The notes under the pieces are model-generated. The model was not told the DNA's origin. It ran no database searches and was given only the letters and a program-made list of their open reading frames with translations. Source: a bacterium (lineage in GTDB: Bacteria; Patescibacteriota; Minisyncoccia; Phycocordibacterales; UBA9973). Taken from it: a stretch of 64,000 nt of DNA. A program made the translations under genes and the position numbers. Shown here piece after piece: positions 1,647 through 60,931 of the stretch. How positions within the stretch are numbered: the stretch's first letter is position 1; each line of letters starts with the position of its first letter. The DNA lies in assembly GCA_021824345.1 (NCBI GenBank), contig JAKAKW010000011.1, positions 9,074 through 73,073 on the forward strand. The letters run 5' to 3'.

Positions 1647-1771
1647 AACCGTTTTTTATAAATATGGGGTTTTCCACACGCAAATGGCGTATTTTTAATG
1701 CTTATAAAGGTATAATAAAGACTATTAATGGAAAAGAAAGACAAACAACCTGTCTAAATCAAACTATATTT

Positions 1772-44215: not shown

Positions 44216-44657
44216 CAACGTATTTTCTCGTGTTCTAAATATGGGCGAAGGTAACATTTAAAGGCCGGATTTCGTCATATATGTCAGATTGCAGATTTCC
44301 AAAAAATATGCAATCATGTGTAAGCCTTGTGGATAAGGCTTATTTATCCACATAATATATTGCCGTATAGTCGCGTGCAGTATATTATATTGTTACTGCA
44401 AATTATGGACGAAAAAAGGCGTGCGAAAGCGCGCTGATTTGGGTCCACAATTTGCGTTTAGTTTTAATCTGTCCATTGTTTCTCGGTCCGCCTAGGCGGG
44501 GAAACAATGAAAGATAGAGACATGCGCTTTTAGTTTTGTCCTCTCATATTAAAAATGTCAGGACAAGTCGAAACTAAATTAATGGCGCATAACCCCTGTG
44601 GAGGTTTCTTAAAAATTATAAGTTTAGGAAACGGCCTCGGGATTAATAATTAACATT

Positions 44658-46823
44658 ATGAGTAATTTATCAAAATCAAAAGTCCTCTTGGGATTGGCGA
44701 TCGCGGTTGCAGTTCTTGTTGTCGGAGGTACCTTCGTCAGCGCTGCTTACACCCAGACTGTCACTCTTAAGCAGGGCATGACCAGCCCTCAAGTTTTGAG
44801 CCTTCAACAGACTCTTAACGCCAATGGCTATCTGATCGCCACCACCGGCGCGGGATCTCCTGGAATGGAGACCTCTTACTTTGGTTCTAAGACCAAGTCC
44901 GCTGTTATGGCTTTCCAGACCGCTAAGGGCCTGACTGCAGACGGAGTTGTCGGTCCTCAGACCGGCGCCGCTTTGGCTGCTTTGACTGGAACCACGTCTT
45001 CCTCCGGACTTCCGGCTGGATGCACCTCTGCCACCGGTTATAGCGCCACCACGGGCCAGCCTTGCACTTCCACTTCCAGTTCTTCGACTCTTCCGGCCGG
45101 TTGTACTTCAACCTCCGGTTACAGTCCTACCACTGGCGTAAAGTGCGACAGCACCACGTCTACGACTCTTCCGGCCGGTTGTACTTCAACCTCCGGTTAC
45201 AGTTCTACGACCGGTGCGAAGTGTGATGGAACTTCAACCCCCACCACTACTTCCGGAACCAGCGGTTATCTGTCCAATATAGTCAATGATTCTGCCAATC
45301 GTGTTTCCACGGTGTACGAATCTCAGACTGATCAAGTAGTGGGCGGATTCCAGGCTACGGCCAGCTTGGCTGACCAGACGGTGACCCGCGTTCGTGTTAC
45401 TTTCAATAACACTGACACCGTGTCTTCCGCTGACCTTGCTAAGTACATTTCCAGCGCTTCTCTGTGGTACGGTTCTACCAAGATCGCGACCATGCCTGTT
45501 TCTCAGGCTGACCGCTCCAATGCCGATGTCTTTACTTTTAACTTCACCGGCTTGAGCGCGAAGATCCCTGCGGAGCAGATCGGACACTTCTACGTTTCCG
45601 TTAGCGCCAATGGTTCAATTGACACCAACGACACTTCTGCCGCTTGGACGGTTAAGTTCGTGGCTTCTGGCGTGAGCGCTACGTCTCCTGATGGAACTTA
45701 CGACACTTATCCTTCTTCTGACCTTACCGCTCAGACCAGCCTTGGATTCGGCAAATTTGCCGCTCAGGGCGTAAAGGCTACTGTCAACCTGTCTTCCAGC
45801 AATCCTGCTGCCAGTTCAGTTGCAGTATCCAGCTCGGCTTCCACCACGGATGTCCCGCTGTTGGCCTTCACCATTCAGGCGACCAACTCTGATCTGACCT
45901 TGAGAAAGGTTCCGATCCAGGTTGTGGCCAGCGCGGACGGAGTAGGAAAGATCATCAGCACCTTGAAGCTGTATAAGGATGGAACAGTAGTTGATTCCGT
46001 TGACGCCACCAGTGGCGAGTACACTGTTACCAGCGGAGCCATCACTTCCACCAATGCAGCCAGCGCTACTGCTACCACTGCGGGTTACTTCTTCAGCAAC
46101 ATTTCGTCTCCTTACAACGTAATCAAGGCCGGTACTACCGCCGAATTCGTCATTAAGGCTGACGTTAAGTCTCAGAGCAGTAACTACACCGCGGGCGATA
46201 CGCTTACCGCTTCCTTCACCAATGCTGACGCTATCACCACGAACTTCTCTGTTCTGGATGGCAGCGGCAATCAGCTTACCACCGGCTCCACCTATCGCGT
46301 AGGTTCGGCTGTGGGTAATGTTCAGACTCTTCTGATTAACGGCGTGAACGTTGTGATGGGTACGGCTACTATGAGTCAGCCTACTTACAGCGGAAGCGGT
46401 GCTACCAAGACCGCCAGCGCTTCCTGGACGATTCCGGTCACCGTGACCGCCTTCGGACAGACCTTGTATGTCGGTCAGACCGTTCAGTTGGCTTCTACCG
46501 CGACGGCTTCCAATGCCTTCGCAGTGACCTTCTTTGACGGAGCTACCCCGACTACGGCTGACACTACGTCTTCAGCTACCTTGTCTATGACCACTTCTGA
46601 TGCTACCTTGGAGAGCAATGGTTATCGTTTGGATAGCGGAACGGCTAAGCACTTCACTTTGACCGTGCTTATGACCGCTCCTGCTACCGCCGATCACCAG
46701 TATGGAGCATGGATTCAGCAGATTCGCACTTTCACCTCTTCCGATATCGGAACTGGTGCTGCGAACCAGAGCTTGGTTCCTGCAACTTCCTTCAAGACCG
46801 GCATTCAGAAAGTCCACAGCTAA
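44658..46823 (+). CDS. Thr/Ser/Ala-rich cell-surface (S-layer-like) protein with N-terminal peptidoglycan-binding domain
   Basis: Signal/TM (VLLGLAIAVAVLVVGGTF), PG_binding_1-like domain (LKQGMTSPQVLSLQQTLNANGYL...MAFQTAKGLTADGVVGPQTGAAL), three ~26-aa LPAGCTS.SGYS.TTG..C repeats, then about 520 aa beta-rich and extremely T/S/A-rich. Strong terminator downstream; biased codon usage suggests high expression. Confidence 0.8.
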   Translation: MSNLSKSKVLLGLAIAVAVLVVGGTFVSAAYTQTVTLKQGMTSPQVLSLQQTLNANGYLIATTGAGSPGMETSYFGSKTKSAVMAFQTAKGLTADGVVGPQTGAALAALTGTTSSSGLPAGCTSATGYSATTGQPCTSTSSSSTLPAGCTSTSGYSPTTGVKCDSTTSTTLPAGCTSTSGYSSTTGAKCDGTSTPTTTSGTSGYLSNIVNDSANRVSTVYESQTDQVVGGFQATASLADQTVTRVRVTFNNTDTVSSADLAKYISSASLWYGSTKIATMPVSQADRSNADVFTFNFTGLSAKIPAEQIGHFYVSVSANGSIDTNDTSAAWTVKFVASGVSATSPDGTYDTYPSSDLTAQTSLGFGKFAAQGVKATVNLSSSNPAASSVAVSSSASTTDVPLLAFTIQATNSDLTLRKVPIQVVASADGVGKIISTLKLYKDGTVVDSVDATSGEYTVTSGAITSTNAASATATTAGYFFSNISSPYNVIKAGTTAEFVIKADVKSQSSNYTAGDTLTASFTNADAITTNFSVLDGSGNQLTTGSTYRVGSAVGNVQTLLINGVNVVMGTATMSQPTYSGSGATKTASASWTIPVTVTAFGQTLYVGQTVQLASTATASNAFAVTFFDGATPTTADTTSSATLSMTTSDATLESNGYRLDSGTAKHFTLTVLMTAPATADHQYGAWIQQIRTFTSSDIGTGAANQSLVPATSFKTGIQKVHS
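45009..45236 (+). repeat. Three tandem 78-81-nt repeats (LPAGCTS[AT][ST]GYS.TTG..C units) in the surface-protein gene
   Basis: Units start at 45009, 45090, 45168 (cttccggc[ct]gg...), highly similar at DNA level. Confidence 0.7.
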
Positions 46824-46861
46824 TCTAGCTTTGGCATAGGTCCAGTACAATAAAAGTACGC

Positions 46862-46893
46862 AAAAAACCGCCTTCGGGCGGTTTTTTGTTTTT
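46862..46893 (+). terminator. Rho-independent terminator of the surface-protein gene
   Basis: aaaaaaccgcc ttcg ggcggttttttgtttttg. Confidence 0.8.
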
Positions 46894-46926
46894 GTGTTTC
46901 AACTGTTTTATTTGTATAATGTACGA

Positions 46927-48951
46927 ATGAATTTAAAAGACAAGGTTCTCAAATATGCCAGTTTCATTCTTGTACTCCTTATTCCCGTCGTATATTTCGG
47001 AGGAGCGGCATATCCGAGCATCGCGCCTAAGATTTTTTTCTTTTACGGAGCAGTTGAATTGATGGCCGCCTTTTGGATATATGCTTTACTCACCGATCCG
47101 GAGTATCGATTAACAAAGAAAACTCTCCTTTATTTTATCCCCATATTTGCCTTTGTGGCATGGATGACCGTTTCAGGCGTCATGGCGGTCAATCCGCGTT
47201 TGGCGTTCTGGGGTACCCTGGCTCGAGGAACCGGCCTTATTGTTCTTTATCACGCCTTCATTTTTTCCGTTATAATGGCGTCTCTGTTTAAGAAGTTCGG
47301 AAAGGAATATTTGTACAGGCTGATGAAATGGTTTGTGGCGGGAGGGTTTTTGCTTTCAATAACCATATGGTTTGGGGCGTCAGGTTTCAAATTGCCGTAT
47401 CAGTGGTCTCAAACCGACGGGGGAGGAGGATTGACCGGCAATTCGTCTCTTGCGGCCGCCTACCTTCTCTTTGCCATTGCTTTTGGAATAATTTTGTTGC
47501 TTTCACGCTCAGTTTCTAAGAAAGAGAAATGGCTTACTGTGGGCGCCCTTACTGTTACAATCTTTTCTCCTCTTTTTATAAACTTGGTTTTCTGGATGTT
47601 CTCCGGCCAAGGTTTGATGGGGAATGCCCGCGGAGCAACAATAGGGATGTTTTCCGGAGTGGCTGCAGCTCTTGTAATTTATGCTATTTTTTCCGGTAAA
47701 AAAACTTGGCGAGCAATTGGCATTATCCTTGTTATCGCAGGGATTGCCAGCTTTTCATATCTATGGAATCGGTTAGTTACGCCCGGCACCTCTCTTCATG
47801 AGACATTTGTCCAAGATGCTACTGGTACCCGTTTCATATTTTGGAATGTGGGAAGCGAAGTTTTACAGGATAGTCCATGGTTTGGCTACGGGCCTGAAAA
47901 TTACATGATTGCTTTCCAAAGGCATTTTGATTACCGAATGCTTGAGGCAAAATATAACCATGAGGTATGGAACGATCGGGCCCATAACATCTATTATCAG
48001 ACCGGAACGGATGGCGGATATCCTGCCATTGTTTTATACGCGCTGTTTCTGGCAGGCATTCTATTTGCATTGTATAAAGCATACAAAAAAGAACGCCTGA
48101 GTCTGAAAGAGGCGTGCATCCTTGCCGGCTTGATCGTCGGATATGTTATCCAAAATTTGGTTTATTTCGATTCCACCATATCACTCATGGCTCTTTTCCT
48201 TGTGGCAGGAACAGCATACGGATTTCAATTTGACACCGCAAAACAAAATGAGGAAGTGTGGAAACTAAAGTCTATTCCAATCCAAAAGATCACATCCGTT
48301 ATCATCTTCATATTTTTTGCCCTTGCTTTCATTGTTTTCGCCTGGAATCCTTTTATGAAAGACATAGCGTATGTAAACGCCTTTGAACATCCGTCCGAAC
48401 AATCCTTCAAAGCCCTTGAAGACGGATCTTCCATTGGGGAAGATTGGGATGTCAGCGGATTTGCCAATGATATGTATAAGTTCTATGCTTCCCATTCCTT
48501 GTCCATAAAAAGCGACAAAGCCAGAAATGAACGTGCTATTCAAAGTATTTCATACACCCTTAACTATCTTGAATGGCTGGCTCCGAGAGAGCCGTATGAT
48601 TTTCGCCTTTATGCGAGCATGGTACTTCTATACAATACCAGGACTTTCCTTTCAAATGCTTCATATGATTCCGCGCAAGCGGAACACTTGCTTGCGCTTC
48701 TGGCTCATGCGGAAAAGCTGTCTCCCGGGGACCCAGAGATGTATTGGAATGAGGCCCAGATAATGGCCTGGAAGGGCGATTTGCAAGCTGCGGCAAACGC
48801 GTATGAAAAGGCGATAGAGGTTGCGCCAAAATTGTCCGTATCGCATGAACTGCTCATTAAGTTCGCACGGGCTCTGGGCGACAAAAATCTGTATAACTTT
48901 GCGGTAGATCAGGCAAAAAAGTATGTTCCCAATTTTGTAATTCCCAATTAG
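46927..48951 (+). CDS. Wzy_C (O-antigen ligase/polymerase superfamily) membrane protein with C-terminal TPR-like domain
   Basis: Multi-TM protein with the Wzy_C signature region ...WNDRAHNIYYQTGTDGGYPAIVLY... and a periplasmic C-terminal TPR-like region. Start placed at ATG 46927 (MNLKD...) because the ATG at 46894 abuts the upstream terminator and a TATAAT lies at 46913-18. Confidence 0.8.
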   Translation: MNLKDKVLKYASFILVLLIPVVYFGGAAYPSIAPKIFFFYGAVELMAAFWIYALLTDPEYRLTKKTLLYFIPIFAFVAWMTVSGVMAVNPRLAFWGTLARGTGLIVLYHAFIFSVIMASLFKKFGKEYLYRLMKWFVAGGFLLSITIWFGASGFKLPYQWSQTDGGGGLTGNSSLAAAYLLFAIAFGIILLLSRSVSKKEKWLTVGALTVTIFSPLFINLVFWMFSGQGLMGNARGATIGMFSGVAAALVIYAIFSGKKTWRAIGIILVIAGIASFSYLWNRLVTPGTSLHETFVQDATGTRFIFWNVGSEVLQDSPWFGYGPENYMIAFQRHFDYRMLEAKYNHEVWNDRAHNIYYQTGTDGGYPAIVLYALFLAGILFALYKAYKKERLSLKEACILAGLIVGYVIQNLVYFDSTISLMALFLVAGTAYGFQFDTAKQNEEVWKLKSIPIQKITSVIIFIFFALAFIVFAWNPFMKDIAYVNAFEHPSEQSFKALEDGSSIGEDWDVSGFANDMYKFYASHSLSIKSDKARNERAIQSISYTLNYLEWLAPREPYDFRLYASMVLLYNTRTFLSNASYDSAQAEHLLALLAHAEKLSPGDPEMYWNEAQIMAWKGDLQAAANAYEKAIEVAPKLSVSHELLIKFARALGDKNLYNFAVDQAKKYVPNFVIPN

Positions 48952-48974: not shown

Positions 48975-49880
48975 ATGAAAAAAATTGTGATAACCGGAGG
49001 GGCAGGCTTTATCGGATCCCACATTGCGGATGCGCTGATTGAGAAAGGATATGAAGTCCATGTGGTGGACAATCTTTCCGCCGGGAAGAAAGAGAATGTG
49101 AATTCCAAAGCCATTTTGCACGTCGCGGATATACGCAATGGCATGGAAATGCTTAAGATATTTGAGGGAGCGGAATATGTTTTTCACGAAGCCGCTTTTC
49201 CGAGGGTGCAATATTCCATTGAAAATCCGGTGGAAACGCATGACATAAACGTAAACGGAACTTTGAATGTGCTGGAAGCGGCGCGGCTGTCCGGAGCAAA
49301 AAAAGTGATCTTCGCTTCCTCCTGCGCGGTATATGGCAATCCGACAAAATTACCAGTGGATGAAACTGGCGAGATTTCTCCCATGTCTCCCTATGCGGTG
49401 CACAAATGGATGGGGGAAAAGTATTGCCGAATGTATTCGGATCTGTACGGCCTTAAAACTGTCTGTCTCAGGTACTTTAACGTATACGGTCCGCGTATGG
49501 ATCCGGAGGGAGCTTATCCAATGGCGATCGGTAATTTCATCAAGATGCGTAAAATAGGCAAGCCTCTTCCCATAACCGGCGACGGAACGCAGACCAGAGA
49601 TTTTGTGAATGTAAAAGATGTGGTAAAGGCCAATCTTCTTGCGTTGGAATCAGACAAGATTGAAAAAGGAGAGGTGGTGAATATAGGCAGCGGCGTAAAA
49701 ACTTCCGTCAATCGCCTCGCCGAGCTTATCGGTGGACCTGTGGAGCGCATTTCTGCGCGACATGAACCGCACGATGTGCAATCTGATGTTTCATTGGCTG
49801 AAAAACTTTTAAGCTGGAAAGCGTCGGTAGTTATCGAGGAAGGACTTGCGGAATTAAAAAAAGAAAATAGTATAGCTTGA
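48975..49880 (+). CDS. NAD-dependent sugar-nucleotide epimerase (GalE-like extended SDR)
   Basis: ITGGAGFIGSH Rossmann motif, SS.AVYG, YAVHK (YxxxK). Confidence 0.8.
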   Translation: MKKIVITGGAGFIGSHIADALIEKGYEVHVVDNLSAGKKENVNSKAILHVADIRNGMEMLKIFEGAEYVFHEAAFPRVQYSIENPVETHDINVNGTLNVLEAARLSGAKKVIFASSCAVYGNPTKLPVDETGEISPMSPYAVHKWMGEKYCRMYSDLYGLKTVCLRYFNVYGPRMDPEGAYPMAIGNFIKMRKIGKPLPITGDGTQTRDFVNVKDVVKANLLALESDKIEKGEVVNIGSGVKTSVNRLAELIGGPVERISARHEPHDVQSDVSLAEKLLSWKASVVIEEGLAELKKENSIA

Positions 49881-49884
49881 GCGA

Positions 49885-50829
49885 CTACTGGCTCACAACG
49901 CTTTTGAAATACTCAATGGTTTTCTTTAGGCCTTCTTCCAGGGGAATCTTCGGTTCCCATTTTAATTTTTCTTTTGCGAGGGTTATATCCGGCTTCCGGC
50001 GGCGGGGGTCATCTTCAGGCAAGCCCTTGAAGACTATTTTTGATTTTGATTCTGACAAGTTTAATATCTTTTCTGCGATATCAAGCACGGTTCTCTCATC
50101 CGGATTGCCCAAGTTAACTGGTCCGGTAAAATCGCTGTTCATAAGCTTAACGAGTCCTAAGACCATATCTGAAACATAACAGAAAGATCGTGTTTGCCGT
50201 CCGTCGCCGTATACCGTCAAATCTTTTCCTTCAATTGCCTGCACAATAAAATTAGAAACCACTCTTCCGTCGTCTGCATTCATGCCGGGTCCGTAAGTGT
50301 TGAAGATTCTGGCAACACGTATCTTTGTTCCATACTTTCTCTGAAAATCAAAAAAAAGAGTCTCCGCTATTCTTTTTCCTTCGTCATAGCAGGATCTTAT
50401 GCCGATAGGGTTTACGTTTCCTTTATATTTTTCATTTTGCGGACTTTCCAAAGGGTCACCATAGATTTCGGATGTTGAGGATTGGAGAATTTTTGCATTA
50501 TTTGCTCTTGCCAGTTCCAGGACATTAAGCACGCCTATGGTGTTTGTCTGAATGGTGTGCACGGGATCAAGTTGGTAGTGTACGGGAGACGCGGGACAAG
50601 CAAGATTGTATATTTCGTCTATTTTCTGTTTTGGAAATTCTGCATTAATAATGTCTTTCTTTATGAATGTAAAGCGTTTTTCTTCCAAGAGGTGCCGGAG
50701 ATTTTCCATGCTTCCAGTCAATAAATTATCAACCCCGATGATTCTATAGTTTTCATTTTCAAGAAGATAACGGGAAAGATTGCTACCGATAAATCCTGCG
50801 CAACCCGTTATCATAATTGTTTTTGTCAT
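49885..50829 (-). CDS. UDP-glucuronate decarboxylase (UDP-xylose synthase)-like extended SDR
   Basis: IMITGCAGFIGSNL...VDNLLTGS...YGDPL.SPQ.E.Y.GNVNPIGIRSCYDEGKR... is characteristic of UXS/ArnA-decarboxylase enzymes. The track ORF begins at a TTG at 50868; the ATG at 50829 (MTKTIMITG) is the likely start. Confidence 0.75.
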   Translation of the reverse strand: MTKTIMITGCAGFIGSNLSRYLLENENYRIIGVDNLLTGSMENLRHLLEEKRFTFIKKDIINAEFPKQKIDEIYNLACPASPVHYQLDPVHTIQTNTIGVLNVLELARANNAKILQSSTSEIYGDPLESPQNEKYKGNVNPIGIRSCYDEGKRIAETLFFDFQRKYGTKIRVARIFNTYGPGMNADDGRVVSNFIVQAIEGKDLTVYGDGRQTRSFCYVSDMVLGLVKLMNSDFTGPVNLGNPDERTVLDIAEKILNLSESKSKIVFKGLPEDDPRRRKPDITLAKEKLKWEPKIPLEEGLKKTIEYFKSVVSQ

Positions 50830-50983
50830 GTCGGTCTTTATACTAACACCCGTTGTATTTAGTGGCAATATGTCTTAGTATAATTAAATTAATTGGGCGG
50901 AAAATGCAGGCGCGCAGAAAATGGTATAATATGAATGATCTAAAGGCAATTTTCCGAAAGTAAAAATAATAACATAAATCAAT

Positions 50984-52072
50984 ATGACAAAAAAATTTAA
51001 TAAAAGAAATCAAAAAGTAAACAAACGAGCGCTAATAATAGGCATAACGGGCCAAGACGGCTCGTATTTGGCTGAATTCCTGCTCTCTCGCGGATACGAG
51101 GTGCACGGCCTTATACGGCGCTCTTCCAGCTTCAACACGGGCCGTTTGGACGATATTTACCAGGATCCGCATGAAAGCCACCGCAGGCTCTATTTGCACT
51201 ATGGCGACCTAATTGATTCTCACAGCCTATTAAATATCATCAGCGAAAGCCAGCCGGACGAAATTTACAATCTCGGGGCGCAGAGCCATGTGCGCGTCAG
51301 CTTTGACATTCCGGAATATACCGCCGACGTGGATGCGCTGGGAACCACCCGCCTTTTGGATGCGGTGCGGGCGAGTAAACTGCCTGCAAAAATTTATCAA
51401 GCAGGATCCAGCGAGATGTTCGGGAAAGTATTGGAAACTCCGCAAAAAGAAAACACTCCATTCAACCCTCAAAGCCCCTATGCATGCGCCAAAGTATTCT
51501 CGCACTTCATTTGTAAAAATTACCGCGATTCATACGGAATGTTCATCGCCAACGGCATACTTTTCAATCATGAATCTCCCCGGCGGGGAAAAACTTTTGT
51601 GACCAAGAAAATAACCGAAGGCCTTGCGGACATAAGACTGGGGAAGAAAGACAGAATATATCTTGGGAATCTGGACGCCAAGCGCGATTGGGGATACGCG
51701 CCGGACTACGTGGAAGCAATGTGGCAGATGCTCCAGGAGGAAAAGCCGAATGATTACGTAATATCTACAGGGGAAACTCATTCAGTGCGCGAATTTGCCG
51801 AGGAAGCGGCACGTCTCATAGACATGGATCTGCAATGGAAGGGAAGCGGGCTTGAGGAGGAAGGCATAGACGCAAAGACGGGCCAAACAATCATCAGCAT
51901 TGATCCAAAGTATTACCGCCCTAGCGAGGTGGATGCCCTTCTCGGCGATAGTTCCAAGGCAAAGAAGAATCTTGGCTGGGAACCAAAAGTTAAATTCAAG
52001 GAGTTAGTGAAAATTATGATGGTAGGAGAGTTTGAAGAGAGAAAATTGGACAGTTCCGCATATTTGTCTTGA
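50984..52072 (+). CDS. gmd: GDP-mannose 4,6-dehydratase
   Basis: [34 protein letters not shown]..., GMD family. Confidence 0.9.
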
Positions 52073-53007
52073 TCATGGAAAAGAACTCCAAAATATACGT
52101 TGCCGGACATACCGGACTTGTCGGTTCGGCGATTGTACGAGAACTTAAAAAACAGGGATATGAGAATCTAATATTTAGGACTAGCAAAGAGCTAGACTTG
52201 CGCTCGCAATCAGACACCTTAGATTTTTTTAAGAAAGAACAGCCCGAGTATGTCTTTCTTGCCGCCGCCAAAGTTGGCGGTATAGGGGCAAATGATAAAT
52301 ATTCGGCGGATTTCATTAGGGACAACCTAGAGATAGAAGACAACGTAATTGACGGCAGCCACCAAGGGGGAGCAAAGAAACTGCTTTTTTTGGGCAGTTC
52401 ATGTATATATCCAAAGCTTGCTCCCCAGCCTTTAAAAGAAGAATACTTGCTCACCGGTCCGCTTGAAGAGACAAATAAAGCGTATGCGGTAGCAAAAATA
52501 GCCGGAATCACCATGTGCCAGATGTATGATAAACAGTATGGCACGAATTTTATTAGCGCCATGCCTACTAATTTGTATGGTCCCGGGGACAATTTTGATC
52601 TTGAAACTTCGCATGTTCTGCCCGCGATGATTCGGAAGTTTCATGAAGCAAAAGAAAGCGGGGCTAAAGAAGTGACACTGTGGGGCACGGGCAATCCTAA
52701 ACGAGAATTTCTGCATGTGGATGACTTGGCAAGCGCATGCGTTTTCCTTATGGAAAAGTACGATAGTCCGGAGATAATAAACGTGGGAACAGGGGAAGAT
52801 GTTTCAATAATGGAGCTGGCAGACAAAGTAAAAAAAATAATAGGGTGTTCCGGTAAAATTGTATGGGATTCAGACAAGCCCGACGGAACGCCGCGTAAGC
52901 TGCTGGATACTTCAAAAATCAATGCTCTCGGCTGGAGACCGTTAATTTCCATGGACGAAGGTATAAAATCTACATACGAGTGGTTTTTGGATAAATATGG
53001 AAAATAA
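52069..53007 (+). CDS. fcl: GDP-L-fucose synthase (GDP-4-keto-6-deoxymannose 3,5-epimerase/4-reductase)
   Basis: [15 protein letters not shown].., [14 protein letters not shown]. 4-nt overlap with gmd. Confidence 0.9.
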
Positions 53008-55015
53008 ATATGACATTGTAATAGTCGGCGCCGGAATTTCCGGCGCTACTCTGGCAGAGCGGTACGCTTCTTTAGGAAAAAAAGTGCTGGTGATAGAATC
53101 TCGGGACCATATCGGAGGAAACTGTTACGATTTCATTAATGAAGACGGAATCTTGGTGGCAAAATACGGGCCGCACTATTTTCATACGAATTATGAAGAC
53201 GTGTGGAGATATGTGAACCGTTTTTCTGAATGGGTCCCTTTTGAGGCTCGAGCCGTCAGTCATATTGACGGGAAAAAGGTTTCTTTACCCATAAACATAA
53301 AGACAATAAATCAGGTCTTTGGCTTGGAGATTAAAGAAAAAGAAGAAATGGAGAAGTGGGTAAAAGAAAATACTGAACCAAAAAGGCACCCCAGAAATTC
53401 TGAAGATGCGGCAATAGGCCGGGTAGGCAAAATCCTATATGAAAAGGTATTCAAGGAGTACACTCGAAAACAATGGGATAAGGATCCCAAGGAGCTTGAC
53501 CCTGAAGTGACAAACAGGATACCGATTCGCCTAAACGATGACGACAGGTATTTTACCGATGTCCATCAAGCCATACCAAGGGAAGGATACGCCAAGCTTT
53601 TTAAAAATATGTTAAGCAATGAAAATATAGAAGTTCGCCTCAATACCAAGTGGGAAGATGAAAAAGACAGGATTACTTACCGGGAGAAACTTTTTTTTAC
53701 GGGGAGGATTGATTCATATTTTAAAAAGAAATTCGGCCTGTTGGAATATCGCTCGCTTAAGTTTGAGTTTGAGACTTTTAACCGCGAATATTTTCAGGAA
53801 TACGTGCAGGAGAATTACCCGTCACTTAAAGTTCCCTTTACCCGAATTGTTGAATACAAGCATATGACCGGTCAGAAACATCCAAAAACGACCGTTTCCC
53901 GCGAATATCCTACTTGGGAGGGGGAGCCGTATTATCCGGTTCCTTCGACAAAAAACAGGAAGATATACGTAAAATATCAGCATGAGGCGAAAAGGTTGGA
54001 GAAGAAAAACATTTATTTTGTCGGCCGACTGGCCAATTACAAATACTTTAATATGGATCAGGCGTTCAAGAACGCCCTGGATTTGTTCTATAGGCTGGAA
54101 GGAAAGAAAGAACGCGGATCGGGGATGACGGTAAGACTCGCCGGGGGAATGGGAAACCAGATGTTTCAATACGCACTTGGCCGGAAGCTTTCAATAAAAA
54201 ACAACGTACCCTTGTATCTTGATTTGACGTTTTTAAATCACAGAGTCAAACTACCGGAGTTTTTGCGCCCTCATTTCGTTTTTCATGATTTGAAACTTGA
54301 TGTGTTTAATATCAAGGCTGACATCGCGAATCCCGCCCAAATTGGTTTTTGGAACCGTCCCTTTTTATCTGGAAAGATCATGATATTGATTGACGCGATT
54401 TTGCGCAAGCTCGCGCTCTTCCCAGGATGGGAAAAGTCATTTTCTTTTAACAAGAAAATCCTTGATTTAGGTCCTGGCACGTACCTGGAGGGATATTGGC
54501 AAAGCGAAAAATATTTCAAGGATATAAGCGAAACGCTTCGGAAAGATTTTTCCTTGAAAGCGCCCTTGTCCGGCAAGGCAGCGGAACTTTATAAAGAAAT
54601 AAGAAACTGCGCGTCCTTATGTATATTTGTGCGCAGGAAAGACATGGCAGATAAATCTTTTCACGGCACCGTGCCCATTGAGTATTACCGTGCCGGCATA
54701 GAATACATAAAGAAGCGTCAACCTATTGAAAAAATATACGTGTTTTCAGATGACAATGAATGGTGCCGGCAGAATCTGAAGTTTGAATATCCCACCTTGA
54801 TCGCCGAAAAGGAATGTTCCGGCAAGAAATGGGAAGGGCATCTTATTTTAATGAGTGCGGGCCGGAATTTCATAATCGCCAACAGTACTTTTTCCTGGTG
54901 GTCGGCATGGCTTTCAGATAACCCGAACAAGATAGTCGTTGCCCCTAAACAATGGTTTGGGAACAATAGGCTGGACGATTCCGATTTAATACCCGAAAGC
55001 TGGGTAAGATTATAA
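52997..55015 (+). CDS. Fusion ORF: UDP-galactopyranose mutase (N-terminal ~375 aa) plus GT11 alpha-1,2-fucosyltransferase (C-terminal ~295 aa)
   Basis: N-terminal [18 protein letters not shown]...[15 protein letters not shown] (Glf FAD-binding) through ...[12 protein letters not shown]. The C-terminal part begins at the internal Met of [18 protein letters not shown] (GT11 motif I) and contains VRRKD, YVFSDD and [12 protein letters not shown] motifs. Continuous frame with no stop. 11-nt overlap with fcl. Confidence 0.75.
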
Positions 55016-55090
55016 ATCTTTCATTTTAAGGATATTTATCAATTCTGATTTGTTGTTTTTATTCTTAATATAGCTTAGTATTATTTACAT

Positions 55091-55930
55091 ATGGCAAAAA
55101 AGAAACTCCGCATAGGATTTATCGGACAAGGATATATCGGGAAGAATTATGCGGATGATTTTGAACGCAGAGGATATAAAGTTACCCGATATTCAAAAGA
55201 GCGTCCTTATATCAAAAACAAAGAAGAAATCAAAGAGTGCGACGTAATATTCATAGCGGTTCCGACCCCTACGCGCCACGGATCCTTTTATGACGGAGTA
55301 TTGAGAGAAGTTATTCCTCTGGCCGGCCGAAATAAGGTTGTGGTCATCAAGTCCACTGTGAGCCCAGGCCTCACCCGCATCTTGCAAAATAAATTCAAAG
55401 ACCGCCTCATTATTCACAGTCCTGAATTTTTGAGCGAGGATACCGCCGCCAATGATGCAAGCAATCCTTTTTTTAATATTGTCGGTATAAAAAAGAATTC
55501 CCGAAAGCATAAAAAGGCGGCCTCGCTCCTTCTAACCATACTTCCTCCTTCTCCGTTTTTCTCCATAGTTTCATACGAAGAAGCCGAGCTCATAAAATAT
55601 ATTCATAATTCTATGGCCTTTACCCAAATTGTTTTTTTTAATCTTATGTATGATTTGGCCCTAAAATTTGGCGCCGATTGGGCCAATATCAACAGAGCCA
55701 TAAAAGCGGATCCGTTAATACCCAACAGGTACTCCGAACCTGTGCATAAGAGCGGAAGGGGTGCGGGCGGGCATTGTTTCATAAAGGATTTTGCAGTCAT
55801 ATCCCAGGCCTATGAAAAAGCAGTAAAGGATCCAAAAGGAATTGATGTATTGAAAAGCCTGGAAATAAAAAACATAGATCTTCTTAGAAAGAGCAAGAAG
55901 GATCTTGAATTGCTTCGTGAGATTTATTAA
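55091..55930 (+). CDS. UDP-glucose/GDP-mannose dehydrogenase-family protein, short (279 aa; C-terminal UDP-binding domain missing)
   Basis: IGFIGQGYIG (NAD-binding), VIFIAVPTPT, VVIKSTVSPG, IIHSPEFLSED, GAGGHCFIKD (catalytic Cys), as in Ugd; the ORF ends about 50 aa after the catalytic Cys. Confidence 0.55.
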   Translation: MAKKKLRIGFIGQGYIGKNYADDFERRGYKVTRYSKERPYIKNKEEIKECDVIFIAVPTPTRHGSFYDGVLREVIPLAGRNKVVVIKSTVSPGLTRILQNKFKDRLIIHSPEFLSEDTAANDASNPFFNIVGIKKNSRKHKKAASLLLTILPPSPFFSIVSYEEAELIKYIHNSMAFTQIVFFNLMYDLALKFGADWANINRAIKADPLIPNRYSEPVHKSGRGAGGHCFIKDFAVISQAYEKAVKDPKGIDVLKSLEIKNIDLLRKSKKDLELLREIY

Positions 55931-55939
55931 ATTTCCTAT

Positions 55940-56860
55940 ATGAAAAAAAACGCGGTTTCAGAAAAAATTTCGGCGGTTGTGGTAACGCATAATAGAAAAG
56001 AACTCTTAAGGAATTGTTTGAATGGAATTTTGCGGCAAACTGTCCCTGTCAACCATATCTTTATAATTGACAACGATTCTAAAGATGGTACGGAGGATAT
56101 GATCCGGGACAAATTTGGAGATAATCAGCTTGTAGAATATAGAAATCTCGGTAAAAATACCGGAAGCGCCGGTGGCTTTCATGAGGGTGTGAAGATGGCC
56201 TACGAGCGTGGATCGGAATGGATCTGGCTTATGGATGATGACGTAACACCTCGCCCTGATTGTCTGGAAAAAATGAAAAGCTACGGGCATATATCAAAAT
56301 GTATCAATGCAAACAAAGTTGATCCATCAAACAAGGAATATGAGTTCATGTTTGAAGTTATATTTGATCCTTCAATATGCAGAATGACTTTTATGAATAA
56401 TATCTCCTTTAAAAACGGCAAAGATTTTGCTTTTGTCAATGTCGGATGTTTTGAGGGAATGCTTATTCACCGAGATATTGTTGCCCAAATAGGTTTTCCT
56501 GACAAGCGATTTTTCATTTATAGCGATGATACCACTTATGGATTTATCGCTTCTCTGTATACAAATGTTATTTTTGTGAGAGATGCGTATTTTGATAAAA
56601 AAGTTTCCTTTAAAAATACTGCCACGCCGATTTTTTCATATTACGCGATTCGAAACCAATTCTTACTTAAGGAATACCTAAAGAAATACGGCATTTATAA
56701 TGCGCGCCTGTTTTATCTTGGAATAGCATTATTCGCCGGTCTGGCTGCCACCAAGCAGGCGGTTAGAAGCAGAGACATCAAGATACCATGGTATGTTCTT
56801 CGGGGATTATTTGACGGCTTAAGGGGAAAGTTTTATCAGATTGGGACACACAGAAAATGA
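55940..56860 (+). CDS. Family 2 glycosyltransferase
   Basis: ISAVVVTHNRKELL...IFIIDNDSKDGT (DxD) ...WIWLMDDD, GT-A fold GT2 motifs. Confidence 0.8.
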   Translation: MKKNAVSEKISAVVVTHNRKELLRNCLNGILRQTVPVNHIFIIDNDSKDGTEDMIRDKFGDNQLVEYRNLGKNTGSAGGFHEGVKMAYERGSEWIWLMDDDVTPRPDCLEKMKSYGHISKCINANKVDPSNKEYEFMFEVIFDPSICRMTFMNNISFKNGKDFAFVNVGCFEGMLIHRDIVAQIGFPDKRFFIYSDDTTYGFIASLYTNVIFVRDAYFDKKVSFKNTATPIFSYYAIRNQFLLKEYLKKYGIYNARLFYLGIALFAGLAATKQAVRSRDIKIPWYVLRGLFDGLRGKFYQIGTHRK

Positions 56861-59019
56861 ATCTTTCCTGGGAAAAGATAAACAAGGGACTTTTACTTCT
56901 TGGACTTGTTGCCCTGCTATATAGGGAAGGGAACTTTGCCGGCACGTTTATACCAAAGCCCTTTGAAATAATATTTGTGATCTTGTGTGTTTCCACAGCT
57001 CTTTTCATGTTAAAGGGCTCAAAAATGAAGGATTTTTTCGCATCAATACCGAGAAAAATATTAATTGCCGTATGTGTAATGTTGGGGTCAGTATTTCTGG
57101 GATGGATTTCGGCTTCATTGTCCGGCATGAAGCCCAATTTCAATATGATTTTGGAGCTAGGAACTTTTTTAATCGGAATTGGCATTTTTCTTTTGATTCT
57201 TTTTTATGCTCAGGGGAACAAAGCGTATGCGCGATATTGCTTATATGCCATGCTGGTTCCGGCGATATATGCTTTTTTTATTTTCCTGTATCCCGGCACA
57301 TATCTTGGCATAAATTTAAAAATACATTTCCTGGGTTTTACGATAAATCCGAATACCATTTCAAAGATCTTATTGATCCCGGCAATGTTTTTTGTTTCTT
57401 ATTCATTATTCGAGCATCGGAACAAATGGATAAAGGCTCTGTATATTTTCTTGTCCGCTTCCATGGTTTCTCTAATATTCTGGACGGGGTCAAGAGGGTC
57501 TTTGGTAAGCCTTATAATAGGAATGGGTTTCATTTTAGTCGTATACATATTTCATGAATTCACCTGGAAAAAAATCTTCTTCGGTTCCGGAGTAATCTTA
57601 GCTATACTTATTTTGGGTCAGGGGATGTTGCCCATAGATCGACAGGAGGCATTCGTGCACAGAGTGGTCCTCACTTTTATTCATCAGCCGAATATAGTTT
57701 CCACCTTGCGAGAATATACTACTGGGGTAGTTATATATCAGAATAAAGAGGAAGAATTGGAAGGAACGATTGACATAAAACTCGTTGAGCCTAGGCTCAT
57801 TGCGTGGCCGTTCTATTTGAAATATGTGCTTCTTCATCCCCTTGGCATAGGTCCGGATACGCACAAAGATTTCGGACTTGTAGATAAAAAAGGCAATCCA
57901 ATAAATTCAGGTCCTCATAACACCTATCTTGAAATATGGCTGTGGGGAGGCATACTAGGCATCCTAAGTTTCATATACTTATTGTATTGCGCTTTTAAAA
58001 ACTTAACGGAAAGGATCAAATCTTCCTTCAGCCTGACAAATATTGCGCTACTGGCGATTCTTTTTGCTTTATCCGTATCTATTTTCTTTGATGACAGTCT
58101 TTCATTTTATTGGTTTTTCATAATCTTGGCGTTTGCCTTAATTGAAAAGGAGACTATTGCGGTCAGCATGCATATGGGAAAAGAAGAGCTAGATATTTTT
58201 GCAAAGCTGAGTTGGAACTTCAAAACGGTTTTTGATGTTGGTTCAAGAGACGATATTGATTATTTTAAGATAAAAAACGACTGCGAGTATCATTTGTTCG
58301 AACCTAATACGGAGGCTATTGCCTCAATAAAACGGAAAATTTCGAATTTAGGCGAGCACAATATAATTCTCAATGAATTCGGACTATCAGACGCCGACAA
58401 AGACAACTGCGTTTATTACAAGAACGTTCAGTCATTTATCCCGCATTGGAGTTTAGCCTCTTTTGACACTGGCGAACGTTTTTCTCTGCGTAAAATGGAT
58501 GATTATGTGGAAAATCACGGCATATCCTTCATTGATTTTCTGAAAATAGACGTTGAAGGAATGGATTATCAAGTAATACTCGGGGGCATAAATACTATTA
58601 AGCGGAACAACAAAGTATCTTTTATCCAGCTGGAATGTTCCGGTGGCAGCAGGCAATATATCGAGCTTCTGGATAATTTTGATTTTTACTTAATTATGGA
58701 TCCTAGTCTGCTGAAAGTGATCAATACTTTAAACAGAACAGGCATCGACTTCAACAAGCAATTGATCAAGATGGATGAGGATGTAATAATTTTTTTGGAT
58801 AAGACTATGGCTGAAACTGGCGCCGCGGCTTGTATTTTAGGAGTGAATAAAAACATTGATTTTTCTTTAATAATTCAAGAAAGAAAACTGGCATACAGCA
58901 TAGTTTCCGTGAACAAATCGTACAGTGGAATGGCTCTGGATTATTTTAAGATCTTATACGGTATCAAAAGGCGCTTGCGGAAAATAAGGAAGACGGTCAA
59001 AAATTTCCTCTTTACTTGA
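56857..59019 (+). CDS. Fusion ORF: Wzy_C (O-antigen ligase/polymerase-like) membrane domain plus C-terminal FkbM-family methyltransferase domain
   Basis: About 430 aa with 10 or more TM helices and the Wzy_C region (GSRGSLVSL...SGPHNTYLEIWLWGGILG). From about residue 440, FkbM-type MTase motifs (FDVGSRDDIDYF...FEPN......KIDVEGMDYQVILG). No stop between the two parts. Confidence 0.7.
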   Translation: MNLSWEKINKGLLLLGLVALLYREGNFAGTFIPKPFEIIFVILCVSTALFMLKGSKMKDFFASIPRKILIAVCVMLGSVFLGWISASLSGMKPNFNMILELGTFLIGIGIFLLILFYAQGNKAYARYCLYAMLVPAIYAFFIFLYPGTYLGINLKIHFLGFTINPNTISKILLIPAMFFVSYSLFEHRNKWIKALYIFLSASMVSLIFWTGSRGSLVSLIIGMGFILVVYIFHEFTWKKIFFGSGVILAILILGQGMLPIDRQEAFVHRVVLTFIHQPNIVSTLREYTTGVVIYQNKEEELEGTIDIKLVEPRLIAWPFYLKYVLLHPLGIGPDTHKDFGLVDKKGNPINSGPHNTYLEIWLWGGILGILSFIYLLYCAFKNLTERIKSSFSLTNIALLAILFALSVSIFFDDSLSFYWFFIILAFALIEKETIAVSMHMGKEELDIFAKLSWNFKTVFDVGSRDDIDYFKIKNDCEYHLFEPNTEAIASIKRKISNLGEHNIILNEFGLSDADKDNCVYYKNVQSFIPHWSLASFDTGERFSLRKMDDYVENHGISFIDFLKIDVEGMDYQVILGGINTIKRNNKVSFIQLECSGGSRQYIELLDNFDFYLIMDPSLLKVINTLNRTGIDFNKQLIKMDEDVIIFLDKTMAETGAAACILGVNKNIDFSLIIQERKLAYSIVSVNKSYSGMALDYFKILYGIKRRLRKIRKTVKNFLFT

Positions 59020-60931
59020 AAAGCTTCCGGTATTTATCCTTGTTTTTCAAAACGTAGTCCGGCAAATCTGATTCGTCGGTCCAGTATTTGAATTTTCGGC
59101 CTCGATAATCCACGTTTTTATTCACTCTATCTTCTAAAGTTTCCAGCCAGTCTGCATAGGCTGGGTGCCGCCATTCCGCCATTTTTCTTTTTGCTCCTTC
59201 CACTCCTCCCATAAATCCGAAATGCCATCCGCCATCGTTAACCTCGGCATATCTAGTCTTTTTTCTGGTACGCAGATCATTCAGGCAATTTTCTTTTATA
59301 GTTTTGTATTGAACGGCAATTGTCCCCGTCCAACCGTTTACTTCGTTACAACGATTGTTTAAATAGTAATAGTATGCAAGCTGCTTTGGGCGGATTATCT
59401 CGCTTTTTGAAAAATCGGTAAGCCCTTTTAATTTTATTGGGTTCCATATTTCATCCAAGTCGGACACAAATACCACGTCCGTGTCATTCAGATTAAGCTT
59501 CGCAAGTGCTTTTTTCGCGCTTTCTTTCTGATAGAATTCCCGTACCCAGTAATGCTCTCCGGCGCCTACGTTGCTGTTATTCTTTGCCATTTCAAACAAG
59601 GAAGTGTCTTTAGGAAAATCATTCACCACGTAATAGGTTATCTTGTCTTTCCATTTTGCGAACCGCTCCTTGTGTTTCTCGTATTGCAGTTCATGGGGCA
59701 TTCCGGAAAAAGTTTCCGTGCTCTCCACGATCACGAATTGGTCCACGTAATCGTTCAATATATTAAGCCTGATTTCCAGGAGATCAAGTTCATTGAGCAG
59801 ATAAAACAGGTCGTATACCTTGATCCTTTTCTTATATTCGTCCAGTTCTATTTTTGATACCCAGGCCTTTTGCCTGACTTTTTCTTTTTTCAGTTCAAGG
59901 GAAGTTCTTACGAAGTTTTTTGCGCTCTGCATCTTGTAAATCACCGCCCTGGCGGCCCTTCTGGCGCTTTTCGGAAGCAATTGTTTGGCTTTTGCCTTCA
60001 TGCCTTTTGGGGCCGGCATGAAAACGGGAGCCTGATTTTGATAATAATCTTTATGTCTTTCCATATACGCCTTCAGTTCCTTTAAGCATGTATCATAATC
60101 GTTGAGATTCCCTTCCCGGTCCAGGTAATTCCACCCTTTCGTAATGTTGTATCCCAGGCTCCAGTATCCGTCCGAAACGTTGTGCCTGCCCCAATATTTC
60201 GGTGCAATGCAGAATTTTAGACTCTCGCTAAGCCAGGCGGGAAACCAAGCGAAGCTGGAATTGGACATGATGAGATAATGGGCGTTTTTAACCACGACAT
60301 AATCCTTTGCAATACTGAAATGAAATACCCCGAAATCCGGGAAGAATTTTTTGGCTGTTGAAACATCTTCGGTAATTACAATGAATCGGAAATTCGGATT
60401 GATTTTTCGCATATGCCTTACGGCATCTTCCCAATATTCTTTTCTCAAAAAAAATTCCGGATGCCTGACATACTCTCCGCCCCGGAAATTTATGACGCAG
60501 GTGTTGTCATCGGCGTAGTCATAGCATTCATATTCTTCCTTCACCTGGAGCCATTTTTTTATTTCATCCTTTCGGTGAAAAATATATTGCTCGTCTTGCA
60601 TTAATCCGTCTATTTTTGTGCCATCTTTAATGTTTACCAGATTTTTGTCATATGTTCTGATGTCTGCTCCGGAAAATGGGTGGATGATTTTTCTTTCAGT
60701 GTAATAATACTGCATGCCTTCGGGCAAGGTTTTGGGCGGTCCGCCCTCCGGGCCTTTTCCGCCTGTCACCTTACATCCGAAATCAAGATTCATAAAATTT
60801 CCCGCCTTAAATTTTTCAGGGGATTTGATACCAAAATCATATCCATTATCTAAGGAAAAAACTCTCGTTGCCACATAGCAGGCAAGCTGGTTGCCCAGTC
60901 CTTGGCCGTTGTATAACTCTGTAATTATCAT
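59012..60931 (-). CDS. Two-domain glycosyltransferase: N-terminal GT11-like domain plus C-terminal GT17-like (MGAT3-type) domain
   Basis: N-terminal GQGLGNQLACYV, FRGGEYV, MSNSSFAWFPAWL mirror GT11 motifs I/II/IV. C-terminal FYLLNELDLLEIRLNILNDYVDQFVIVESTETFSG..., TDVVFVSDLDEIW, GGWHFGFMGG, PDYVLKNKDKY parallel Glyco_transf_17 blocks (NHEFDLLDVRF..VVDAFVVCESNFT, DDVFIIDDADEIP, GWHCSWCF, PKYLLKNYDRF, recalled from memory). Confidence 0.7.
   Translation of the reverse strand: MIITELYNGQGLGNQLACYVATRVFSLDNGYDFGIKSPEKFKAGNFMNLDFGCKVTGGKGPEGGPPKTLPEGMQYYYTERKIIHPFSGADIRTYDKNLVNIKDGTKIDGLMQDEQYIFHRKDEIKKWLQVKEEYECYDYADDNTCVINFRGGEYVRHPEFFLRKEYWEDAVRHMRKINPNFRFIVITEDVSTAKKFFPDFGVFHFSIAKDYVVVKNAHYLIMSNSSFAWFPAWLSESLKFCIAPKYWGRHNVSDGYWSLGYNITKGWNYLDREGNLNDYDTCLKELKAYMERHKDYYQNQAPVFMPAPKGMKAKAKQLLPKSARRAARAVIYKMQSAKNFVRTSLELKKEKVRQKAWVSKIELDEYKKRIKVYDLFYLLNELDLLEIRLNILNDYVDQFVIVESTETFSGMPHELQYEKHKERFAKWKDKITYYVVNDFPKDTSLFEMAKNNSNVGAGEHYWVREFYQKESAKKALAKLNLNDTDVVFVSDLDEIWNPIKLKGLTDFSKSEIIRPKQLAYYYYLNNRCNEVNGWTGTIAVQYKTIKENCLNDLRTRKKTRYAEVNDGGWHFGFMGGVEGAKRKMAEWRHPAYADWLETLEDRVNKNVDYRGRKFKYWTDESDLPDYVLKNKDKYRKLFK

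Follow-up and report, generated by a model that had tools for sequence, protein, structure and literature searches.

Does the membrane protein encoded beside a bacterial surface-protein gene decorate that surface protein with glycans? The question is raised by a 64-kb stretch of a contig from an uncultured, ultra-small patescibacterium (JAKAKW010000011.1; the whole stretch is called the window here, and all positions are window coordinates). In it, gene A, which encodes a secreted, Ser/Thr/Ala-rich protein with a peptidoglycan-binding domain, is followed on the same strand by gene B, which encodes a membrane protein of the Wzy_C superfamily, and then by a run of sugar genes. An earlier note, drawn up from the sequence alone, had proposed that B O-glycosylates A. 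Our analysis indicates that A is very probably a major wall-anchored surface protein, and we place similarly high confidence in B as a transferase of lipid-linked glycan that works on the outer side of the membrane. The step that would join the two, O-glycosylation of A by B, is a tentative reading that falls somewhat short of an even chance.

Homologs of A and B came almost entirely from metagenome-assembled Patescibacteria (the Candidate Phyla Radiation, CPR), under names including Candidatus Nomurabacteria, Paceibacteria, and Parcubacteria. CPR genomes are without lipid A synthesis and lipopolysaccharide (LPS), and the structure and assembly of the CPR envelope are still called unclear (PMC5220378). 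Cryo-electron microscopy of CPR cells often revealed an S-layer, with the outer membrane absent (10.1101/2020.05.14.094862; 10.1101/2022.04.20.488981; PMC5220378). No lpx or kds genes were present among the genes of the window. On the identity of the CPR S-layer protein, or on protein glycosylation in Patescibacteria, our literature search turned up only general statements.

An identical copy of A is database entry P0001. The mature A protein has a computed mass of ≈70 kDa, a computed isoelectric point (pI) of 5.3, and few charged residues. Over the full 721 residues, Thr accounts for 16.8%, Ser for 14.1%, and Ala for 12.2%, so that Ser and Thr together make up 31%. The N-terminal hydrophobic segment (aa 3–33), described in the earlier note as a signal peptide or transmembrane (TM) segment, is indeed present. 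Its end in VSA/AY, read with the family-alignment consensus ...ASA, makes a cleavable Sec signal peptide the most likely interpretation, rather than an anchor in the membrane. The PG_binding_1 domain that follows was modelled as helical (pLDDT 85–94) and is predicted to anchor A non-covalently to peptidoglycan.

Between this anchor and the body of the protein, the regular expression LPAGCTS.[ST]GYS.TTG..C matched exactly three times, at aa 118–136, 145–163, and 171–189, in agreement with the number noted before, and all six Cys residues of A fall within these C-x13-C repeats. Across A homologs, the Cys residues, the TTG motif, and the Gly are nearly invariant, and each protein carries one to five copies. 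The loop region (aa 111–200) was the sole low-confidence part of the AlphaFold2 model, with small beta bridges. The remaining body was modelled as all-beta, with a pLDDT mostly of 85–95 (AlphaFold2, 39-sequence alignment). Pfam searches with the Cys-loop region and with the beta body returned no family, and Foldseek returned only generic Ig-like matches, namely Gram-positive adhesins, integrin legs, and one archaeal S-layer protein. The composition reported for about 500 residues rich in Thr, Ser, and Ala was borne out over ≈520 residues. We considered this region as a disordered, mucin-like glycosylation carpet and rejected that description, as the model shows a confidently folded beta-sandwich.

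The A family comprised 823 matches, conserved over their full length in the Patescibacteria/Nomurabacteria. The beta body alone gathered 489 clusters at 50% identity, nearly all of 600–750 aa and with the same layout of signal peptide, PG_binding_1 domain, one to five Cys loops, and beta body.

The expression signals of A were distinctive. Its effective number of codons (Nc) was 43.3, the lowest among the 36 genes of the window, most of the others ranging from 48 to 61. GCT, GGT, AAG, and CAG were strongly preferred, while ACA and GGG were almost unused, a pattern typical of highly expressed genes. Downstream of A, a terminator hairpin (46860–46889) has a 13-bp stem with six GC pairs and a T-run. 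The 20 related loci examined all have an equivalent A-tract/T-tract hairpin 3' of A, with predicted free energies of −15 to −26 kcal/mol. Because a strong hairpin ends the gene in 20/20 loci, A is a conserved monocistronic unit. Both the strong terminator and the biased codon usage had been pointed out before, and both held up.

S-layer proteins are secreted, very abundant, wall-anchored proteins of 40–200 kDa, weakly acidic, rich in Thr, Ser, and Ala, and poor in Cys. A matches this profile in secretion, wall anchor, size, pI, and composition, and its codon bias and terminator suggest abundance. The signal peptide, the PG_binding_1 domain, the codon bias, and the terminator give good support to the earlier description of A as an envelope protein that is abundant and held on peptidoglycan. 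A is also a reasonable candidate for the S-layer protein of CPR cells, in which it would be abundant and would form a lattice.

The most constant neighbour of A is a hypothetical protein gene (43466–44215, +), which precedes A also where B is missing from the genome. Its product shows weak C-terminal winged-helix signals (HTH_DeoR/DUF7342-like) and might serve specifically to regulate A. The 440-nt intergenic region between the two genes holds a GC-rich hairpin at about 44478–44508.

Gene B most likely starts at ATG 46927, giving 674 aa, and not at GTG 46894; the translation from ATG 46927 is identical to database entry P0121. The extended −10-like element TGTATAAT stands right after the terminator of A, which suggests that B is transcribed separately from a promoter of its own, perhaps as a leaderless mRNA. 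A promoter scan did not list TGTATAAT, presumably since no qualifying −35 hexamer was found.

The Wzy_C match in B (PF04932) had an E-value of 5e-15. Lys and Arg residues numbered 22 in the six even loops and four in the five short odd loops. This tally places the N-terminus inside, and the loop at aa 285–361 and the C-terminal domain after helix 13 outside. The core of B has the membrane fold of WaaL, and its catalytic loop is periplasmic. Among 21–28 members of the B family, R235, R302, P317-x-x-G320-x-G322, N325, and H353 are invariant, with R235 in the external loop preceding the catalytic loop. In the structural model, the 13th TM helix (450–487) is succeeded by helical repeats, and this C-terminal part matched PDB profiles of consensus TPR proteins and of the substrate-binding TPR of OGT (E 1e-27 to 1e-12). 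The earlier description of B as a Wzy_C-superfamily membrane protein with an outward-facing TPR domain was accordingly upheld by the Pfam matches and the positive-inside topology.

At distant loci, B-like genes adjoin Bac_transf initiating transferases, PglF-like dehydratase/DegT aminotransferase pairs, and PglK-like fused ABC transporters. Because these are undecaprenyl-phosphate (Und-P) glycan assembly genes, a lipid-linked glycan donor for B is supported.

The membrane domain of B gave no match in a single-sequence PDB search; a profile was needed. The best solved match to this profile was 9RMK (E 1.2e-11, 262 aligned positions), deposited as 'Oligosaccharyltransferase' with 610 aa. Its residues R224, R298, H349, P313, G316, G318, Q178, and N180 carry the numbers published for Neisseria meningitidis PglL (PMC3643930). 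The entry thus appears to be Neisseria PglL, identified by residue numbering and not by an annotated organism name. The next match was WaaL 7TPG (E 2.4e-10, 165 positions). R235, R302, and H353 of B align with R224, R298, and H349 of PglL, which have been equated with R215, R288, and H338 of Escherichia coli WaaL (PMC3643930), and they align likewise with the catalytic residues of WaaL in the profile. P317, G320, and G322 align with P313, G316, and G318 of PglL. The Wzy_C domain alone cannot tell oligosaccharyltransferases (OTases) from WaaL, and the family also holds polymerases (PMC3643930, PMC12645811). The additional C-terminal external domain seen in PglL and WsfB is present in B. A C-terminal TPR motif has been reported for both of these enzymes, while for WsaB the TPR repeats reside in a protein of their own, whose gene lies immediately 5' (PMC2943079). 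The architecture of B, with its 13th TM helix and external TPR domain, matches that of PglL and WsfB rather than that of WaaL.

Table 1. Position, strand, and basis of the features of the A–B locus and the adjoining glycan island (window coordinates).
Feature	Position	Strand	Basis
Gene A, secreted peptidoglycan-binding Ser/Thr/Ala-rich surface protein	44658..46823	+	Open reading frame, 721 aa; family conserved over full length
Signal peptide of A, aa 1–29, predicted cleavage VSA/AY	44658..44744	+	Hydrophobic segment; family ...ASA motif; predicted cleavage site
PG_binding_1 domain of A, aa 43–106	44784..44975	+	Pfam PF01471, E 8.5e-18
Three C-x13-C Ser/Thr-rich loop repeats of A (LPAGCTSxSGYSxTTGxxC), aa 118–189	45009..45224	+	Regular-expression matches
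Tandem beta-sandwich (Ig-like) domains of A, exposed body, aa 204–721	45267..46820	+	AlphaFold2 model
Intrinsic terminator of A, with A- and T-tracts	46860..46899	+	Hairpin prediction
TGTATAAT, extended −10-like element, ends 6 nt 5' of the B ATG	46913..46920	+	Read from sequence; putative function
Gene B, 674-aa Wzy_C-superfamily membrane glycan transferase, 13 TM helices, external TPR	46927..48951	+	Pfam, model, topology
Large external catalytic loop of B, aa 285–361	47779..48009	+	Invariant columns; positive-inside tally
C-terminal TPR domain of B, aa 480–674	48364..48948	+	Pfam TPR_2; PDB profile matches; model; topology
AT-richer glycan-biosynthesis island	48975..62233		Pfam; ≈13 kb
Second Wzy_C-family gene, fused to FkbM methyltransferase	56857..59019	+	Wzy_C E 3.2e-14; Methyltransf_21 E 3.4e-13

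The gene neighbourhood was sampled from the side of B by scanning GTDB species genomes with the B alignment, which gave 80 loci; B orthologs were defined by a hidden Markov model score above ≈400. An A-family gene lies directly upstream of the B ortholog, on the same strand, in about 22 loci with readable upstream DNA. The exceptions among them have A and B parted only by a Wzy_C-TPR paralog or by one or two genes. Downstream, B is the constant first gene of the island beside A, and the remainder of the island varies between related loci in its gene content.

At 56 loci outside the collinear block described below, we also examined the neighbours of distant B-like genes, counting secreted proteins with at least 22% Ser+Thr as Ser/Thr-rich. 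Up to two genes away from the B-like gene, such proteins were overrepresented (13/180 vs 4/405; odds ratio 7.8, p 1e-4). This enrichment is independent support linking the B enzyme class to Ser/Thr-rich, wall-bound proteins.

In five of the distant patescibacterial loci (L040:9211-11729, L053:7736-9704, L057:12314-13938, L069:12390-13507, and L073:1714-3217), a recurrent pair of secreted Ser/Thr-rich proteins with two Cys residues each adjoins the Wzy_C-TPR gene. One member contains 'ATTISTNITTGGTL...' repeats; its partner combines a linker rich in Gly and in Thr/Pro/Ala with PG_binding_1 domains at the C-terminus, either one or two. L053 and L057 additionally have a PglK-like ABC transporter next to the pair. 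This pair may be a second, independent surface-protein/transferase module.

The proposed mechanism can be outlined as follows. A would lose its signal peptide, be held on the wall by PG_binding_1, and display four or so Ig-like beta-sandwich domains as a candidate S-layer building block; it would be transcribed alone and at a high level. B would be the first gene of a glycan island that varies, has probably been exchanged horizontally, and is inserted immediately 3' of A. B would take a completed glycan from a putative undecaprenyl-pyrophosphate-linked donor on the outward-facing side of the membrane and, through its Arg235, Arg302, and His353 site, transfer it en bloc to an acceptor held by the external TPR domain. 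The acceptor would most likely be Ser/Thr of A, possibly in the C-x13-C loops between anchor and body. These loops are candidate disulfide hairpins and, by analogy, candidate O-glycan acceptor sites; disulfide-flanked sequons in ComP and pilins provide a precedent for such a role (PMC8457361, PMC9829042). So conceived, A and B would constitute an O-OTase system analogous to WsaB/WsfB with S-layer proteins and to TfpO/PglS/TfpM with adjacent pilins. OTase genes located beside their cognate acceptor genes have been described (PMC3643930, PMC9829042, PMC8457361, PMC12645811). The Bacteroidetes D(S/T)(A/I/L/V/M/T) motif was set aside, as it occurs only six times in A and belongs to an unrelated system.

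Several findings weigh against the glycosylation of A by B, and we present them here together with the alternatives on which they bear. The first group concerns the class of the enzyme. The earlier note had suggested comparing B with PglL and WaaL profiles. PglL (9RMK) scored 47 bits and WaaL 43 bits, a margin of ≈4 bits that is too small to classify B, so the comparison ranks PglL first and does not discriminate between the two. P-x-x-G-x-G occurs in the WaaL chain too. Neither PglL_A (PF15864) nor Wzy_C_2 (PF11846) had a Pfam match in B at E ≤ 0.01, and the profile alignment of B with 9RMK ends at chain residue 381, short of the PglL_A region at 395–420. These two motifs characterise PglL and PglS; TfpO and TfpM are also without them (PMC12645811).

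The nearly equal WaaL match and the missing PglL_A and Wzy_C_2 motifs would suit an enzyme that acts as a WaaL-like ligase on a non-protein acceptor, either a membrane glycolipid anchor or peptidoglycan, with the TPR domain as its scaffold towards partner proteins or the wall. The neighbours of B-like genes at distant loci, being generic Und-P glycan assembly genes, agree with this alternative, and no LCP-family ligase was seen in the window, so another enzyme would have to attach any wall polymer. To our knowledge, there is no Wzy_C enzyme that ligates to peptidoglycan. TPR domains typically bind protein, the best matches of the B TPR domain being to the substrate-binding TPR of OGT, and a gene for a secreted protein is consistently found beside B. 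The canonical acceptor of WaaL, lipid A-core, is absent from the lineage (PMC5220378). We regard ligation to a lipid or to the wall as quite improbable.

The top rank of PglL raises a further alternative, in which B is a general O-OTase like Neisseria PglL and acts on many envelope proteins, among them pilins and further Ser/Thr-rich proteins. A would then be no more than one substrate among several, and the position of the two genes side by side would have no functional meaning. The architecture of B is PglL-like (PMC2943079), and the Neisseria pglL gene is not adjacent to pilE and serves many substrates (PMC3643930). Genes of the Wzy_C-TPR type occur very widely in the Patescibacteria: species genomes gave more than 568 matches, and most of these do not adjoin an A-family gene. 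The window also encodes further large surface proteins. One is a 1911-aa probable surface protein with CARDB and FN3-like repeats (1664–7399, +), and another is a 641-aa DUF11 protein, also a probable surface protein (28049–29974, +); both would be possible other acceptors if B were a general O-OTase. Against this stand the position of the B clade of the window, which is always beside A, and the absence from B of the PglL_A and Wzy_C_2 motifs of PglL and PglS (PMC12645811). A general enzyme of this kind receives a low probability.

The second group of unfavourable findings concerns the tie between the two genes. The strong conserved terminator separates A from B, so that they are not an operon. 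In most related loci, the genes for EF-P, RecA, the product of the small conserved gene g40421, FtsK, and a hypothetical protein of ≈250–290 aa are collinear with A, B, and the sugar genes, and only one locus (L064), which counts in favour of the pairing, keeps A and B together without the upstream RecA–FtsK block. The adjacency of A and B may be mere inherited gene order, as it is no stronger than that of FtsK and A. Because the whole RecA–FtsK–A–B block is collinear, synteny is not decisive for A–B coupling.

From the side of A, six A-family genes were chosen independently of B. In five of them (P0108, P0085, P0107, P0019, and P0030), Wzy_C and sugar genes were absent within 8–10 kb of A; these loci keep the upstream block, and A is followed by variable genes and then by L10/L12. 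In the sixth (P0069), A is followed by a Wzy_C gene and then by a different glycan cluster with GT4, GT2, a methyltransferase, and Wzx. The body of A contained 25.9% Ser/Thr in proteins with an adjacent B gene vs 25.1% in those without, and the number of Cys residues was the same. Few Ser/Thr positions are conserved outside the loops in the family alignment. The enrichment beside distant B-like genes comes from eight of the 56 loci, not all of which are independent. Ser/Thr richness and Cys-loop number were rejected as evidence for glycosylation, since they are a family trait independent of the presence of B.

B and the variable glycan cluster behave like an island at the A–L10/L12 junction. 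The asymmetry of the two samples, with B always accompanied by A and A often without B, fits an enzyme tied to its substrate and equally a preferred insertion site. The site between A and L10/L12 is a variable hotspot (L081-L086), where the lineage of the window carries B and the glycan island. Elsewhere, it contains genes for Fic, VanY, a Y1 transposase, a PIF1 helicase, an LCAT-like lipase, a Big_5/PG_binding protein, and a PTL_trimer protein.

The third group relates to the island itself. The large nucleotide-sugar/glycosyltransferase locus that the earlier note had placed downstream of B was recovered by Pfam matches. It encodes an epimerase, a UXS-like protein, GMD, a GDP-fucose synthase-like protein, a fusion of UDP-galactopyranose mutase (UGM) with GT11, a UDP-glucose dehydrogenase-like protein, a GT2 glycosyltransferase, the Wzy_C+FkbM protein, a GT11+GT17 fusion, an RmlD-like protein, and another GT2 glycosyltransferase. 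The GC content of the island is 0.38–0.48, and that of B with the variable cluster 0.38–0.46, vs ≈0.50 elsewhere, and the Nc values, mostly 50–61, reveal no codon bias. Two of the fusions are unusual: UDP-galactopyranose mutase with a GT11 fucosyltransferase (52997–55015, +), and GT11 with GT17 (59012–60931, −). Taken with the genes for GMD and the GDP-fucose synthase-like protein, these fusions suggest that fucose and galactofuranose are part of the glycan.

The second Wzy_C protein, which the earlier note did not mention, aligned with the B family at 97% probability and 19% identity (hhalign), with the Arg/Arg/His residues retained; its FkbM part is probably cytoplasmic. We know of no described fusion of Wzy_C with an FkbM methyltransferase. 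The protein is a candidate polymerase, or a candidate alternative ligase with a built-in methylating or capping activity. As its catalytic residues are intact, it leaves the polymerase and ligase roles open between the two proteins, which counts against assigning B to protein glycosylation. So does the lack of any initiating phosphoglycosyltransferase, flippase, or ABC exporter among the window genes as judged by Pfam; the Bac_transf, Glycos_transf_4, and ABC transporter families had no match in the window. A Wzy polymerase works with a Wzx flippase and usually with a Wzz co-polymerase from its own cluster. Wzx and Wzz were likewise not found in the window up to its end at 64000, and the cluster may run beyond this point.

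In a third alternative, B is a Wzy-type polymerase, or shares polymerase and ligase roles with the second Wzy_C protein, in making a cell-surface polysaccharide encoded by the island, such as a capsule or secondary wall polymer. A would then not be a substrate, and the island would merely sit in the variable insertion site between A and the L10/L12 operon. Two Wzy_C proteins with intact catalytic residues in one island are as expected for a polymerase and a ligase, and polymerases, ligases, and OTases of the Pfam Wzy_C family are inseparable by sequence (PMC3643930, PMC12645811). The variability of the site 3' of A, a block collinearity that may reflect inheritance, the five of six sampled A loci without B, the indifference of A composition to B, and the low GC content common to B and the island, unlike A, all agree with this alternative. 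A related locus (L087) carries a Wzx flippase in its cluster, and tandem Wzy_C-TPR paralogs occur in many loci.

Speaking against a polymerase, an external TPR domain on a 13th TM helix was found in no solved or characterised polymerase or ligase examined and has been reported for PglL and WsfB (PMC2943079). B is also the constant gene beside A while the island varies, neither Wzx nor Wzz was found in the window, and B-like genes elsewhere are enriched beside Ser/Thr-rich secreted proteins. Taken together, we consider the polymerase alternative somewhat unlikely. Tandem arrays of two to four Wzy_C-TPR paralogs were observed in L060, L075, L078, L007, and L072, and in L078 and L077 the Wzy_C tandem adjoins a Ser/Thr-rich secreted protein of ≈1200 aa.

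The proposal that B O-glycosylates A is plausible and partly supported. The PglL/WsfB architecture, the adjacency, the enrichment, the lack of LPS in the lineage, and the likeness of the locus to the slg loci of the Bacillales favour it, and the collinear block, the A genes without B, and the missing PglL motifs count against it. A broader version, in which the A family is the Paceibacteria/Nomurabacteria-type S-layer protein, anchored directly to peptidoglycan, its loops are modular sequons, and B is a dedicated TPR-Wzy_C OTase on a swappable island, is unlikely to hold in all its parts. Under it, a strain would be able to acquire, drop, or swap the glycans on its surface, with host recognition and phage evasion as examples of what this might serve, and the CPR would have its first defined system of protein glycosylation.

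If glycosylation of A by B were correct, lipid-linked O-glycosylation of surface arrays would extend from the Firmicutes and Proteobacteria to the CPR. The bioconjugation toolbox would acquire another OTase and, as a further novelty, a small sequon of the disulfide-loop type. If it were false, the locus would be an ordinary surface-polysaccharide island beside a surface-protein gene. The locus provides a concrete, widely conserved candidate for a major CPR envelope protein, together with a candidate decorating enzyme and island.

The rest of the window is of a housekeeping nature, with genes for aminoacyl-tRNA synthetases, PGK, TIM, RecA, FtsK, EF-P, S6, and SSB; Rfam and tRNA scans of the window returned no matches. 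Three of its genes have unusual features. A 275-aa protein (713–1540, +; local GC 0.40) carries Por_Secre_tail, a type IX secretion C-terminal sorting signal (E 1.3e-12), which is unexpected, as the lineage is thought to be without an outer membrane. RecA (38214–40415, −) has 733 aa, compared with 344–356 aa in related loci, owing to an insertion of ≈368 aa at aa ≈225–592 (from CFSYDTK to LVSN/S). The insertion looks like an intein, and the insert is of homing-endonuclease size. The isoleucyl-tRNA synthetase (22399–26016, +; 1205 aa) contains a His_Phos_1 (histidine-phosphatase) domain inserted at aa 539–699 (E 3e-34), in the middle of its catalytic domain.

Among known systems, the WaaL ligase of Cupriavidus metallidurans (7TPG/7TPJ) shares with B the Arg/Arg/His constellation and the external loop, at 14% identity. 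WaaL has ≈400 aa, 12 TM helices, and no TPR domain, whereas B has 674 aa, 13 TM helices, and a 195-aa external TPR domain. Lipid A-core, the WaaL acceptor, is not made by the CPR lineage (PMC5220378). Neisseria PglL resembles B in its additional C-terminal external domain, reported with a TPR motif (PMC3643930; PMC2943079), and differs from it at Q178 and N180, which correspond to N172 and S174 in B.

The pilin OTases (TfpO/PilO with PilA, PglS with ComP, and TfpM with its pilin) are, like B, Wzy_C enzymes; their genes follow the acceptor gene directly and in the same orientation, as B follows A. They depend on an essential conserved His (PMC9829042, PMC8457361, PMC3643930). The Ser that they modify is found within or next to a loop that is rich in Ser/Thr and bounded by a disulfide, as in CTGVTQIASGASAATTNVASAQC, and the C-x13-C loops of A resemble such a loop by analogy only. 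In contrast to these systems, A is not a pilin, and B has a TPR domain and exceeds the pilin OTases in size. The internal loops of A number one to five, where pilins have one loop or a C-terminal Ser, and the loops of A persist in homologs without an adjacent enzyme. The pilin systems also belong to diderm Proteobacteria and reuse O-antigen or capsule units.

The closest systems in layout are the slg loci of the Bacillales, represented by sgsE with WsaA/WsaB in Geobacillus stearothermophilus and by SpaA with WsfB in Paenibacillus alvei (PMC2943079). A is not homologous to SgsE or SpaA and is anchored by PG_binding_1; its family often occurs without an adjacent enzyme, and glycosylation and lattice formation are proposed properties of A. 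The window further differs from the slg loci in having two Wzy_C genes, and the WbaP-type initiating enzyme and Wzm/Wzt exporter of those loci were not found in it. The shared layout is nevertheless extensive. As in the A–B locus, the surface-array gene of the slg loci is transcribed alone and, in Geobacillus, lies next to the glycan cluster; a Wzy_C O-OTase is combined with TPR repeats, either at its C-terminus (WsfB) or in a separate upstream protein (WsaA in Geobacillus); the nucleotide-sugar and glycosyltransferase genes form a cluster with a GC content below that of the genome; and the envelope is of the monoderm type without LPS (PMC2943079).

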